A DNA stretch of 43,411 nucleotides from Promethearchaeota archaeon (GTDB lineage: Archaea; Asgardarchaeota; Lokiarchaeia; Sigyniarchaeales; SOKP01). The first letter of the stretch is position 1. Each line of letters opens with the position of its first letter. The stretch spans positions 1-43,411 of the forward strand of contig JAFGOA010000198.1 in assembly GCA_016926735.1 (NCBI GenBank), given 5' to 3'. Shown in pieces: positions 36,581-43,345 of this stretch. Position numbers and translations under genes: made by a program. The notes under the pieces were generated by a model, which worked only from the letters and a program-made list of their open reading frames with translations, searched no databases and was not told the origin of the DNA.

Positions 36581-36961
36581 ATAGAATTTTGTGATGAGTG
36601 TGGAGGACTTATGATTCCCTCAAAAGAAAAAGGAAAAAAAATATTTAAATGTAAATGCGGTGCTTCAAAAATATTTACTGAAAGTAGATCTAATGCATAT
36701 AAGATTCATACTAAAATAAAACACTCCTATAGAGAAGAAATATCAAATACAAAAGATATAATAAAGTGGAAAGATGAGAATCTAAAAAGCTCAATTAAAG
36801 ATTTTAAATGTAGAAATTGTGGATATGATAAAGCTCAGTTAGAGACACGTCAAACAAGAAGCGCAGATGAAGGTATGACAATTTAAGATATTTAATTTTA
36901 AATCATAAGACATTTTATCATCTGCCTAAAATGTGGAAAAATGAGAAAGATCGGTAGTTAA
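36581..36961 (+). CDS. tfs: Transcription factor S / RpoM family, join(36581..36879,36910..36961), 116 aa after splicing, ATA start
   Basis: The spliced product reads (M)EFCDECGGLMIP..CKCG..CRNCG..QTRSADEGMT|HFIICLKCGKMRKIGS, giving both zinc ribbons and the acidic DE hairpin. Confidence 0.9.
36880..36909 (+). other. Candidate 30-nt BHB mRNA intron in tfs
   Basis: Central helix TATG/CATA, bulges ACA and AGA, 9-bp inner stem, outer exon-exon stem GCAGATGA/TCATCTGC; three in-frame TAA codons inside. Confidence 0.85.
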
Positions 36962-37118
36962 ATTCACAATACATTATTAATTGAGAATATAAATGATTTT
37001 TTTCTTCGAATTAGGTAATATAGTAGAAATATAACCTTCAAATTATTTATAAAAATCTAGTAATTTCTACAAAAATCACCAATTTCTATTCTAATTATTA
37101 ATCTTTTTTTTTTTCAAA

Positions 37119-37226
37119 AGGACCAGCCCTAAGGTTATCAGGCTGTTCGCTCATCACTGAGTTCAAAACATACATCATCTATCATACATAGAGTACTTTC
37201 TCCGAAGTTTTGAAAGAAGTTATCCC
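37119..37226 (-). ncRNA. Candidate structured ncRNA, likely a C/D-box guide sRNA
   Basis: Minus strand reads TTGA-actca-GTGATGA-GCGAACAGC-CTGA; the guide is complementary to the 23S A-loop GCUGUUCGC; stems TTCAAAAC/GTTTTGAA and CAGCCT/GGGCTG. Confidence 0.55.
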
Positions 37227-37531
37227 ACAATACTTATAAAAATAATAAATGTTATAGTATTCTAAGGAGGGACTATTCTTTTTCAAACAAGGCTCAAAAT
37301 CCTTGACTTATGAGAATACCCACATAGAATTATTTGGAAAAGATTCCAGACTTCTATTATCCTTCTAAGTTTACACACACCTATTTTGATATGAATAAAT
37401 GAATAAGTTATGTGATCGTGAGTATTAATGAGGAGCGAAATTGTAAGAGGAATTGTTGACAGTATCAATAGTTGAGAAGTTTTATTTTAAGATATTTAAC
37501 TCCAATGATTTTATTTTCGATTCTTGTTTTT

Positions 37532-37616
37532 TCATCTCCCTCCTTATTTTATAATGTAAGATATAAATTACTATCATTTTAAGCGAGATCGATATTTAAA
37601 ATAAGGAGGGAGATGA
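37532..37616. repeat. Perfect 20-bp inverted repeat with a 45-bp spacer (MITE-like element or hairpin)
   Basis: TCATCTCCCTCCTTATTTTA (37532-37551) and TAAAATAAGGAGGGAGATGA (37597-37616). Confidence 0.8.
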
Positions 37617-39714: not shown

Positions 39715-41412
39715 ATGAGAAAAAATACAAATAAAATTAAAGTATTTTTTGCAATTTTTTTAATGCTTGTATTTATAATGAGTACTTTTTTCATGGCAAC
39801 AAGCACTCAGTATAATATATCAAGCGATAATAAAGAGGATACAATTATTAAATCTCAAGATTTTTCCTCTAAAGATTATTCTTCAATACTTAAGGAAGAA
39901 AAGAATAGTTTAGGACATATTTCTGTATTAAATTTAACATACAATAGACCGGGTTTTCATCTTTCTTCTTCTTATAGTAAATTAGAAGAGGAATATAATA
40001 GTACTGCTTTAGTATTAGATTATATAAATACAACCTATATGGAATCACTTCAAATGGCTTCACGAAATTTTAAATCCCAAGAGTATATTCAAAATGATGA
40101 TATTTTGGTTAAATTAAATGAGACTATTGTTGTTAAATATGATCAGTCATTCGATCCTGTAGATGGACTAGAAGGTTATGTTCTATATGCTCCAAGATTA
40201 CCTATAGAGGAGGTTTTTGAAATATATTACAATGACACTCTGATAAGCGAAACAGATTATTCTTTAATAGGAGATTTTATAATGTTCAACTATTTTGTAT
40301 ACGAAAATTTTGCTTATACAAAAGAAGCATTTATTATGAATATCATTTATTCTTATAAAATAAATATAGCATCTTGGCAAATGAATCAAATAGAGATAAA
40401 TGATTTACCTCTTAATGAAAGTAATTATGATTTTAATCCAACATATAATTATGTTTTTAATTTACGATGCTCTGCATATAAGGATAATGGTCCTAGTTCT
40501 GGTACTGAATTTTCTCAAGATATTATTATAAAATTAAATGTCAGTTTGTATGATCGAGAAAGCTTATCAGATTATAGTTTGAAAATAGATAACGAACAAA
40601 AAACGAACATAGATGATTATTTTGATAATTATGATAATATCATTGTAAATTTAACAGATAATTTCAGAGGAAATAATACCCTCTTTTCATTAGATTTTAA
40701 AACAGATTTTACAATCGGATTTACAAATGCAGTTCATACTACTTGGGCGGTTGATAGATTGATCTCTGAAAAACATTTTAGAGAAAAGATATACTTTCCT
40801 ACAGTAATTTCTGGTCCTGAACATTATTTATTTAAGTTTTCCTTTTTCGAATCTACCTTTTTGATGGACTATATTCAATCTGCAAGCTCCTTGTTTGATC
40901 GAATAGTTGATATTATAGATGTTAATGACACAGAGAATTCTCCAATATCTCAAGGGATCAAAATTACAACCCCTTCTCTCGTTATTGGAGAGAATGCTTG
41001 CCCTTTTAGTATCTTCTATCATGCAAATAAAACAATTAAACTTATAATAACGGACAACATAAATTTACCTGTTTGGGATGTTAATGTAAAAGTATATTAT
41101 TATGATTCTCTTTTTGGAACATATGTTTCAAATGATAAAACATTACCCAATGCTCCCCTTATACCGAATGAGAATGGTGAGATAGTTTTAAATAAAATCC
41201 CTTTAGGAGAATATAAAATAGCTATATTTCAAAATGATATTCTTATAAAAGAAGTTTTAATAAATATAACGTCCTTAAATGAAGAGATATATTATATTCA
41301 TACAGATATATTCCACTTTCCAACAATTATTTTAGTATTTGGGTTGACTAGTGCTGGTATCTTCTTATTTGGATTTGTATTTTATAATAGAAAAACCAAA
41401 AAAAGAAAATAA
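39715..41412 (+). CDS. Secreted or surface protein with an N-terminal signal and a C-terminal TM anchor
   Basis: N-terminal hydrophobic helix, beta-rich body with many N-x-S/T sequons, C-terminal TM followed by the basic tail RKTKKRK. Confidence 0.8.
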   Translation: MRKNTNKIKVFFAIFLMLVFIMSTFFMATSTQYNISSDNKEDTIIKSQDFSSKDYSSILKEEKNSLGHISVLNLTYNRPGFHLSSSYSKLEEEYNSTALVLDYINTTYMESLQMASRNFKSQEYIQNDDILVKLNETIVVKYDQSFDPVDGLEGYVLYAPRLPIEEVFEIYYNDTLISETDYSLIGDFIMFNYFVYENFAYTKEAFIMNIIYSYKINIASWQMNQIEINDLPLNESNYDFNPTYNYVFNLRCSAYKDNGPSSGTEFSQDIIIKLNVSLYDRESLSDYSLKIDNEQKTNIDDYFDNYDNIIVNLTDNFRGNNTLFSLDFKTDFTIGFTNAVHTTWAVDRLISEKHFREKIYFPTVISGPEHYLFKFSFFESTFLMDYIQSASSLFDRIVDIIDVNDTENSPISQGIKITTPSLVIGENACPFSIFYHANKTIKLIITDNINLPVWDVNVKVYYYDSLFGTYVSNDKTLPNAPLIPNENGEIVLNKIPLGEYKIAIFQNDILIKEVLINITSLNEEIYYIHTDIFHFPTIILVFGLTSAGIFLFGFVFYNRKTKKRK

Positions 41413-41418
41413 GTAAAT

Positions 41419-41748
41419 TTGATTGTATTATTCATTGATAATATCGAGGACTTCATAATTTTTTTAGAAAAAAGAATAATGAATGAGATTTTTTTTGAAT
41501 CTAAACAAATTGATAATAAAAATGATCTAACTGCTGAAATTGAGATAGAAATTATTTTACATTTTCTTTCTAAAGTAGCAGAATCTATTGTTTTATATGA
41601 AACTAAAATTGATATGAGTAAATTTGATAACTCTTTTGATGAAGAGAAGGTGATAAGTGAAATACAAAAAATTTTTAAAAAAGTAGATCCTTCAATTAAA
41701 CTTATAAAAGGTAAAATTAGAGAAATTTATCTTTCTTATTCTTTATAA
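41419..41748 (+). CDS. Hypothetical protein
   Basis: 109-aa ORF starting 6 nt after the upstream stop; its 3' end overlaps the convergent aIF2-gamma gene by 13 bp. Confidence 0.65.
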   Translation: MIVLFIDNIEDFIIFLEKRIMNEIFFESKQIDNKNDLTAEIEIEIILHFLSKVAESIVLYETKIDMSKFDNSFDEEKVISEIQKIFKKVDPSIKLIKGKIREIYLSYSL

Positions 41749-43345
41749 TTAACTCTTTTTCCATATCCAATTAATCTAAATCTTCTATTAATAATTCTTG
41801 ATATTGCAAATATAAAATTTTCAGGAACACAAACAGGTGGATTTAGACTTATTTGATATGAATCTTTTAGAATTTTAATAACTGTTCCTCCCGTTTTTTG
41901 AGTTCCTACAACCATAAGTAATTTTTCTCCATGTTTTAAACTATGTACTTTTATCATTTCTTCAGAACCAATAACACGATCTAGTAGATTGACATTTAAC
42001 TCAATTTCACTATAGATCTCGGGTAATGTGTCTAATCTACCCGTAAGATGGCCAATTAATGCATCTCCTTTAGTTAATGCAGGATCTAATTTTGTTCCGA
42101 TCCCAATTAATCCTCCGGGTTTTGCATTATCTAAAAAATTACTACCTTGACTTAAACTAACAATTGTGGATTTAATTGGTATATAACCTTCTTTCACTTT
42201 TAATCCTGGTCGAATTTCAATTTGTTCTCCTACAGAAATTTTACCTTTTAAAACTGATCCCCCAATTACACCACCAACCAATTTTTCAATTTTAGTTCCT
42301 GGTTTATTTACATCAAAAGATCTTGCTATTAAAAATTGAAAATCCTCATTTTCATCTGAAATTTGTGTAGGAATATACTCTTCGAATGCCTCCACAACTA
42401 ATTCAATATTTGCGCTAAAGACAGCAGAAATTGGGATAATAGGTGCATTTTCTGCAACAGTTCCCTTAACAAATTCTTTGATTTCTTTATAATTTTCCAG
42501 AGCTTCTTCTTTAGTAACAGCATCAATTTTATTTTGGATAATTATTATATTTTTTATTCCAGCAATATTTAAAGCGGCTAAATGTTCTCTCGTTTGAGGT
42601 TGAGGACAAGTTTCATCAGCAGCAATTAATAAACAAGCACCATCCATAAGAGAAGCACCACTCAACATCGTAGCCATTAATATTTCGTGACCTGGTGCAT
42701 CAACAAATGAAATATTTCTTTTAAATTTTAATTGTCCTTTACAAATTAAACATCTAAATCTGGGTTCTCCGTTTTTTCTTAGACTATCTACCATATGCAA
42801 GGTTGTGTATTGCTTACATTCAGGGCAATACAATATTGTTGTGTTAGAATATCCCAATTTAATTGAAATTCCTCTTTCTTGCTCTTCTGAATGTCTATCA
42901 GTCCAATCTCCAGTTAAAGCTTTGACCAACGTGGTCTTTATGTGTATTATTTATCTAAATAATTCATTCCATGATCCACGTGACCAACAAGCCCTATATT
43001 GCATTCTGCTTGTTTTTTAATAATTTCTTTAAATGCTTTTATTGATATCTCGTCTTTAGCAGGTCTTTTTTTAATTTCTTTGCTAGGACTCTCTATTGTT
43101 GGACCCTCATTTATTTTTTCCCCGATATCTACTGAAATTGATTCTGTGTCAGGAGTAACAATGACACCTTCTAATAATTTTTTTGCCTCATCAATATATC
43201 GCAACGCTGTAGACTCTCCTATTCCTTTAACTTTTAAAAGATCCTGTAAATTGATATTTGCAATCTTTTCAACACTATCTATTCCAACTGATCTCATTCT
43301 CTCTGCTGTTGCAGATCCAATTCCTTTAATTTTTTCTAAATCCAT
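41736..43345 (-). CDS. eif2g: Translation initiation factor aIF2-gamma with an N-terminal HhH domain, complement(join(41736..42937,42967..43345)), 526 aa after splicing
   Basis: Upstream ORF ends QAECNIGLVGHVDHG; the downstream frame continues KTTLVKALTGDWTDRHSEEQERGISIKLGY, DAPGHE, QPQTREHL, NKID, RSFDVNKPG, FRLIGYG. Confidence 0.93.
42938..42966 (-). other. Candidate 29-nt relaxed-BHB mRNA intron in eif2g
   Basis: Removing TGAATTATTTAGATAAATAATACACATAA gives CAT GGA AAG ACC ACG (H-G-K-T-T); inner stem ATTATTT/AAATAAT and outer exon-exon stem ACGTGG/CCACGT. Confidence 0.8.

Follow-up and report, generated by a model that had tools for sequence, protein, structure and literature searches.

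Short bulge-helix-bulge inserts in protein genes of a Promethearchaeota genome: probable mRNA introns associated with free-standing LAGLIDADG endonuclease genes

Introduction

The spliced mRNAs described in archaea are those of cbf5 in Sulfolobales and Desulfurococcales (PMC2738675) and Haloferax HVO_1309 (PMC10485636), and no further case was found in the literature consulted, in which subscription journals were largely uncovered. A study of Asgard introns (10.64898/2026.10.13.758758) dealt with tRNA genes only and found no route of arrival. The tRNA splicing endonuclease (EndA) of Asgard archaea is reported to be of the alpha/beta type, with a loop that permits relaxed motifs (PMC5829648). 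In phages, free-standing homing endonucleases cut at a distance, co-convert the flanks and target conserved sites (PMC2988022); elements of this kind are lost more slowly where the site is conserved (PMC2814812). In this study, a 43,411-nt stretch of DNA (the window) was analysed, which is contig C18 of a 3.88-Mb metagenome-assembled genome (MAG) of 26% GC and 238 contigs. The window carries two inserts of about 30 nucleotides (nt), one in the gene for the transcription factor TFS and one in the gene for the translation factor aIF2-gamma. The relatives of this genome are Promethearchaeota (Lokiarchaeia), in agreement with the Asgard host assumed in a preliminary description of the window. The results suggested that the inserts are most probably tRNA-type mRNA introns, removed by EndA and spread by free-standing homing endonucleases (collaborative homing).

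Results

The TFS gene encodes a TFIIS-type zinc-ribbon factor and lies on the forward strand. Exon 1 (36581..36879) was assigned by Pfam PF01096 and alignment of the start. The reading frame reaches a stop two codons after DEGMT, and coding resumes 30 nt further on. The 30-nt insert (36880..36909) is in frame and lies in the acidic-hairpin/zinc-ribbon region. Exon 2 (36910..36962) supplies the last two zinc-ribbon cysteines and the stop, in agreement with intronless relatives. Excision of the insert yields a 116-aa protein, and its junction, DEGMT/HFIICLKC, is identical to that of intronless relatives.

The aIF2-gamma gene lies on the reverse strand and is present in a single copy in the genome. 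Exon 1 (42967..43345) encodes a helix-hairpin-helix domain (Pfam HHH_5), a linker and the motif GHVDHG. The frame ends after GHVDHG, with a stop six codons into the insert, and resumes 29 nt on in another frame. The 29-nt insert (42938..42966) splits the codon of the P-loop lysine and brings both a stop and a frameshift. Exon 2 (41736..42937; Pfam GTP_EFTU and eIF2_C) runs from the P-loop lysine to the C-terminus as 399 intact codons. Excision restores GHVDHG/KTT and a 526-aa protein, again with a junction identical to that of intronless relatives. The N-terminal helix-hairpin-helix domain with its charged linker (43345-43000, reverse strand) is common in the host's family.

Both inserts form AT-rich hairpins, with a GC content of 10% in TFS and 14% in aIF2-gamma, within a bulge-helix-bulge (BHB) structure. 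In TFS the central helix is UAUG/CAUA and the bulges are ACA and AGA; in aIF2-gamma the helix is AUGG/ACAU with one G.A pair and the bulges are AAU and AAA. At both sites the excision that restores the frame corresponds to a cut after the second base of each bulge. The BHB scores, 20.5 for TFS and 17.5 for aIF2-gamma, compare with 11.6 ± 2.2 in the null, and of 31 shifted placements the one that restores the frame scored best at both introns. The preliminary description was right that the two inserts differ in sequence and share a design of 30 and 29 nt, AT-rich hairpins and stops. Their common CATAA(G) end, which it also pointed out, is present in both inserts because each exon offers ATG to the central helix; as a signature of the family it did not hold, since the other introns have different ends. 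CATAAG was not enriched in the window (23 observed, 26 expected).

For both genes, other species have orthologous inserts at the identical position, with different sequences. Among the aIF2-gamma orthologues, 11/19 pairs were altered on both sides, as expected of compensatory change. Among the TFS orthologues, 97% of cells were paired. The covariation score exceeded all 500 shuffles (0/500) at both genes; such scores are inflated by the relatedness of the sequences, but in slid controls the pairing was only 31–48%. aIF2-gamma is essential, and the inserts are real and not due to chance. BHB geometry, frame repair and covariation all support the earlier proposal that these are EndA-type mRNA introns.

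Further inserts were investigated in a genome-wide census. The proteins of a genome of the same family (~2.4 of 3.3 Mb; 1,215 orthologue-like loci) were aligned to this genome by spliced alignment free of any splice-site model, and frame-breaking inserts of 12–130 nt with a well conserved junction were selected. The first pass gave 14 inserts, all of 29–32 nt, and a second pass added three; all 17 were BHB-shaped. A BHB score of at least 16 was reached by 13 of the first 14 inserts and by 3% of random sites. The frame-restoring placement was the best of 31 shifts in 13/14 first-pass inserts and tied in one. Ranked by conservation within their own proteins, the first-pass junctions lay at the 90th percentile; detection is biased to conserved flanks, and looser thresholds gave no further BHB inserts of 29–32 nt.

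A de novo scan for BHB structures that join frames was too noisy on its own at 26% GC (at best 184 matches, against 125–157 with lengths shifted by 1–2). The scan was useful because it was ranked by folding energy and checked by homology, and it added three introns, in the genes for thioredoxin, RpoB and an AIR-synthase-like protein. The RpoB intron was confirmed against 80 orthologues, and an orthologue of the AIR-synthase-like gene carries the same insert. Candidates at C139, C110, C53 and elsewhere were not accepted as introns.

Census and scan together gave 20 introns of 29–32 nt in 19 protein genes. The hosts are aIF2-gamma, TFS, an EF-2 paralogue, RpoB, DnaG, RNase HII, aldolase (two introns), AMP phosphorylase, PFK, IorB, CTP synthase, NAD synthase, CinA-like, AIR-synthase-like, thioredoxin, PEBP, an E1-like enzyme, a MoxR ATPase and an unnamed 125-aa protein. 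Some of these names are presumptive, as we assigned them from motifs; others were assigned by database domains. More than half of the hosts are metabolic or other genes, metabolic genes being hit as often as informational ones, and most introns lie at conserved motifs. Codon bias gave no ranking of expression.

The 20 introns have a mean sequence identity of 40% and a single shared geometry. Three or four of the four central-helix pairs are formed in every intron, and every unspliced reading hits an early stop. All three codon phases are represented among the boundaries, but their place in the bulge is constant, at position 2. Neither GT-AG ends nor target-site duplications were present among the 20. 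Ribozyme-type (group I/II) identity received no Rfam match, and the inserts are only 29–32 nt long.

The claim that many more such inserts would be present in the genome was borne out by this census, which used no motif. The density was overstated: two inserts per 43 kb would correspond to ~180 per genome. The census is incomplete, since the reference genome was covered to ~2.4 of 3.3 Mb, and extrapolation from coverage gives an estimate of 20–30 introns, not hundreds. As predicted, the gene calls of public assemblies break at the introns.

BHB inserts were also seen outside the genome. The uL11 gene of the reference genome has two, of 36 and 28 nt (G018:C4:65663 and 65594, reverse strand). 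The probable TFE-alpha gene of two other species (L408:12980, L449:13605) has BHB-like inserts of 30–31 nt.

Free-standing endonuclease genes were found beside several intron-bearing genes. In the relative Loki_b31, a gene for a 490-aa endonuclease lies directly upstream of the intron-bearing aIF2-gamma gene and is absent in intronless sisters. The protein has two LAGLIDADG motifs with invariant motif columns. It has no Pfam LAGLIDADG match of its own, and its homologues match LAGLIDADG_3; a Pfam LAGLIDADG_3 search of the genome overlooked this endonuclease family. Its predicted fold (pLDDT 84) matches bI3, I-AniI and I-DmoI with E ~1e-6 and a TM score of ~0.5. The Loki_b31 protein is thus predicted to be a monomeric LAGLIDADG endonuclease.

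Of the contigs that have this endonuclease and in which the P-loop can be read, 8/8 carry the aIF2-gamma intron, and the public gene calls split aIF2-gamma at the intron in those contigs. No intronless aIF2-gamma locus among those examined had such a gene upstream. The same adjacency occurs in two more genomes, and only a remnant lies upstream in two others. The TFS intron is close to the 3' end, and here the neighbour follows the gene: immediately downstream, one genome has an intact relative of the endonuclease and another has a decayed copy. Family members also precede the genes for EF-1alpha and the EF-2 paralogue, and both of these genes carry an intron at the P-loop codon that is split in aIF2-gamma. 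All three genes have an endonuclease gene on the upstream side in some genome. Introns in the P-loop lysine codon were thus observed in three paralogous translation GTPases (L362:6529, L364:~3055, L459:~1638 and window 42966). In this genome, a family endonuclease gene lies downstream of the aldolase gene with its two introns.

The endonuclease family was found in 73/131 genomes of the host's family and 2/19 others, often with stops. None of the 20 introns is more than 527 nt from an end of its gene, and for most of them this is the 5' end; N-terminal nucleotide-binding motifs are a confounder here. Long introns containing an endonuclease were not seen at these sites. A 1335-nt in-frame insert in GyrA (G000:C41:10193-8859, reverse strand) was rejected as an endonuclease-containing intron; it starts with Cys, ends with His-Asn before Cys, contains a LAGLIDADG domain and is an intein. 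Two more family members (G000:C95:24559-25803 and C163:496-1332) had no identified intron-bearing neighbour, and more LAGLIDADG matches lie within long frames on C212, C188, C162 and C231.

The distribution of the introns was patchy. By direct reading, the aIF2-gamma intron was present in 14/75 species. The P-loop was split in ~31/122 genomes of the host's family (about 25%) and in 0/24 of other families of the class. A quick tree of exon 2 required 12 intron changes, at least seven of them forced by strong branches, and near-identical sisters differed. The introns of the E1-like enzyme, the EF-2 paralogue and RpoB were seen only within this genus. In the same-family reference genome the introns are fewer and for the most part not the same ones.

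The exons of aIF2-gamma have different affinities. Exon 2 of Loki_b31 is 94–97% identical to that of two intronless sisters, and exon 1 only 68%. Exon 1 is 87% identical to that of intron-bearing species whose exon 2 is only 70–82% identical. Such mosaics were found in three independent species, Loki_b31 and two others. Therefore, the intron and exon 1 travel between species as a DNA block.

The genome encodes two EndA subunits, an alpha subunit with the Tyr/His/Lys triad motifs and a beta subunit. In two relatives (G018:C13:33313-34649, G015:C222:4087-5423) the rtcB match is interrupted at model position 47, its two parts being 26 nt apart; the ligase gene may have an intron of its own there. 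A total of 21 tRNA genes, most of them without introns, form an array at G000:C157:7086-13605; a smaller array is present on C42, and few tRNAs were detected elsewhere. The array on C157 may be a mobile element or a foreign contig, and the host's tRNAs may be hidden by introns.

In the remainder of the window, a repeat at 37030..37640 follows TFS on its 3' side. Several near-full copies with 77–91% identity are present elsewhere in the genome, and it is a MITE (miniature inverted-repeat transposable element) or insertion-sequence remnant outside the intron system. The 740-nt gap 3' of TFS was considered as an endonuclease remnant and rejected, since it holds this multicopy repeat and no endonuclease-profile match. 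The TFS start (36581-36583) is ATA; ATG is used in 50/68 relatives, and the ATA is shared with two congeners and one further genome. A gene at 33778-35055 (reverse strand), which we take from its motifs to be RuBisCO-like, is also present, and the AMP phosphorylase of the same pathway is an intron host.

Discussion

A mechanism is proposed from the structures and established chemistry. The pre-mRNA would fold into a BHB, and the alpha/beta EndA would cut each bulge behind its second base. The exons would then be joined by an RNA ligase, in the usual case RtcB, to give the full protein. At the DNA level, the monomeric LAGLIDADG gene adjoins its host gene, and its product would cut the intronless allele at a conserved coding motif. 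The intron breaks this motif in the DNA and leaves the protein unchanged, which would confer immunity. Repair copies the endonuclease gene, the proximal exon and the intron into the recipient, also across species, as the mosaics show. The remnants show later decay and disappearance of the endonuclease gene while the intron remains. The intron persists because, at a place like this, a deletion has to be exact to be viable. This genus has accumulated at least 20 introns, most of which now have no endonuclease neighbour.

Several observations weigh against this proposal. The association in 8/8 contigs is no formal test, because kin are not independent. Aldolase is the only one of the 19 hosts here with a family endonuclease alongside, and homing for the other 18 introns is therefore an extrapolation. 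Three TFS introns in relatives had no trace of an endonuclease, and one related endonuclease gene had no detected intron-bearing neighbour. The homing model leaves the first origin of a new intron unexplained. No spliced RNA was seen; three metatranscriptomes of the same study gave zero coverage at the thioredoxin locus, and no RNA data set was listed for the aIF2-gamma stretch, which is evidence neither for nor against splicing. rtcB was not found in this assembly, in which archease is present on C115. RtcB is present in 3/3 congeners and 37/41 relatives, and its presence in all three congeners makes an assembly gap the likely, if unproven, reason.

In the preliminary description, splicing was regarded as a possible on/off gate on gene-expression machinery. 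On such a reading the host keeps the spliced introns for regulation of core genes, as with HAC1/XBP1. The early stop in 20/20 unspliced mRNAs would suit a gate, as would the five checked introns that lie at the same site across the genus, some with no endonuclease nearby; a feedback loop is hinted at by the interrupted rtcB of two relatives. However, the hosts (translation factors, RpoB, primase, aldolase, PFK, CTP and NAD synthases, IorB and thioredoxin) form no pathway, and more than half are metabolic or other genes. Sister species at 94% DNA identity differ in intron presence, and the same-family genome has its own, smaller set. Retention is expected anyway, exact deletion being required (PMC2814812). 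Homing endonucleases explain both the position at conserved motifs and the patchy spread. A regulatory gate kept by the host is considered unlikely.

The introns could also have spread without endonucleases, for example by reverse splicing of excised intron RNA from tRNA genes, with the endonucleases settling beside alleles that were resistant beforehand. Consistent with this, 18/20 introns here have no family endonuclease nearby, and Asgard tRNA introns were gained repeatedly by no identified route (10.64898/2026.10.13.758758). However, exon 1 moves with the intron as DNA, introns at different sites are unrelated in sequence, and intact, decayed and lost states of the endonuclease occur at both window sites. 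As an account of the spread, this route is improbable; it may still explain how an intron first appears at a site.

Ribosomal bypassing of the T4 gene 60 type, in which the inserts would be skipped in translation, is very improbable. Gene 60 resembles the present case in size, hairpin, stop codon and adjoining homing endonuclease, but matched take-off and landing codons were present in only 2/20 inserts, neither of them in the window, and boundaries fixed at bulge position 2 in all three codon phases do not fit. Pseudogenes, split genes whose halves are translated separately, and errors of assembly, to which the 238-contig MAG and the TTG start of aIF2-gamma exon 2 might point, are refuted by the orthologue data: same-site inserts occur in dozens of independent assemblies, exon 2 translated on its own would give a protein without the P-loop lysine, and the genes are essential and single-copy with a structure kept by compensatory change.

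EndA-removed introns spread by homing are thus preferred. It is rather likely that the tRNA splicing machinery is a routine step of mRNA processing for 20–30 genes, several of which are essential, and that it was built up by repeated endonuclease invasion; some of the introns may later have been put to use in control. At least 20 introns in the RNA polymerase, primase, translation factors and central metabolism of one genome mean that gene calls, completeness scores and phylogenomic markers are systematically wrong for these archaea. The proposal gives a testable answer to how short archaeal introns arrive, as the endonuclease genes, their predicted targets and the donor and recipient alleles are known. 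If true, it would be a general means by which the protein genes of archaea gain introns, each endonuclease bringing a 30-nt intron as a shield for its cut site. The bearing on the origin of eukaryotic mRNA introns, suggested earlier, is weak, because the aIF2-gamma intron is confined to one family, shows signs of horizontal spread and uses the tRNA pathway and not a spliceosomal one. The data hold no direct evidence on the origin of spliceosomal introns.

The introns of cbf5 and HVO_1309 are also short BHB mRNA introns removed by the tRNA splicing endonuclease, with lineage-specific loss. They are found in one gene per genome, are inherited vertically and have proven splicing, while here at least 20 introns in 19 genes are patchy and horizontally spread, and their splicing is predicted from structure. 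cbf5 itself was uninterrupted in the relatives examined. The Asgard tRNA introns (10.64898/2026.10.13.758758) are likewise short BHB introns, gained repeatedly and missed by annotation. Archaeal rRNA introns such as that of I-DmoI share BHB splicing and the monomeric LAGLIDADG fold, but their endonuclease is inside the intron, whereas here it is free-standing beside a protein gene. Collaborative or trans homing in phages is similar in that the endonuclease is outside the intron, its conserved coding target is hundreds of bases away and flanks are co-converted. There the endonuclease works with a group I intron lacking an open reading frame; here the setting is a cellular chromosome, the intron is a 30-nt BHB intron spliced by proteins, the enzyme is of the LAGLIDADG type and the target genes are many. 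HAC1/XBP1 mRNA is also spliced by an endonuclease plus a ligase, but this is done by stress-activated Ire1 on one conserved target, and there is no sign here of a regulated nuclease or a fixed target set. Relative to these known cases, the number of introns in one genome and their pairing with free-standing endonucleases are new.

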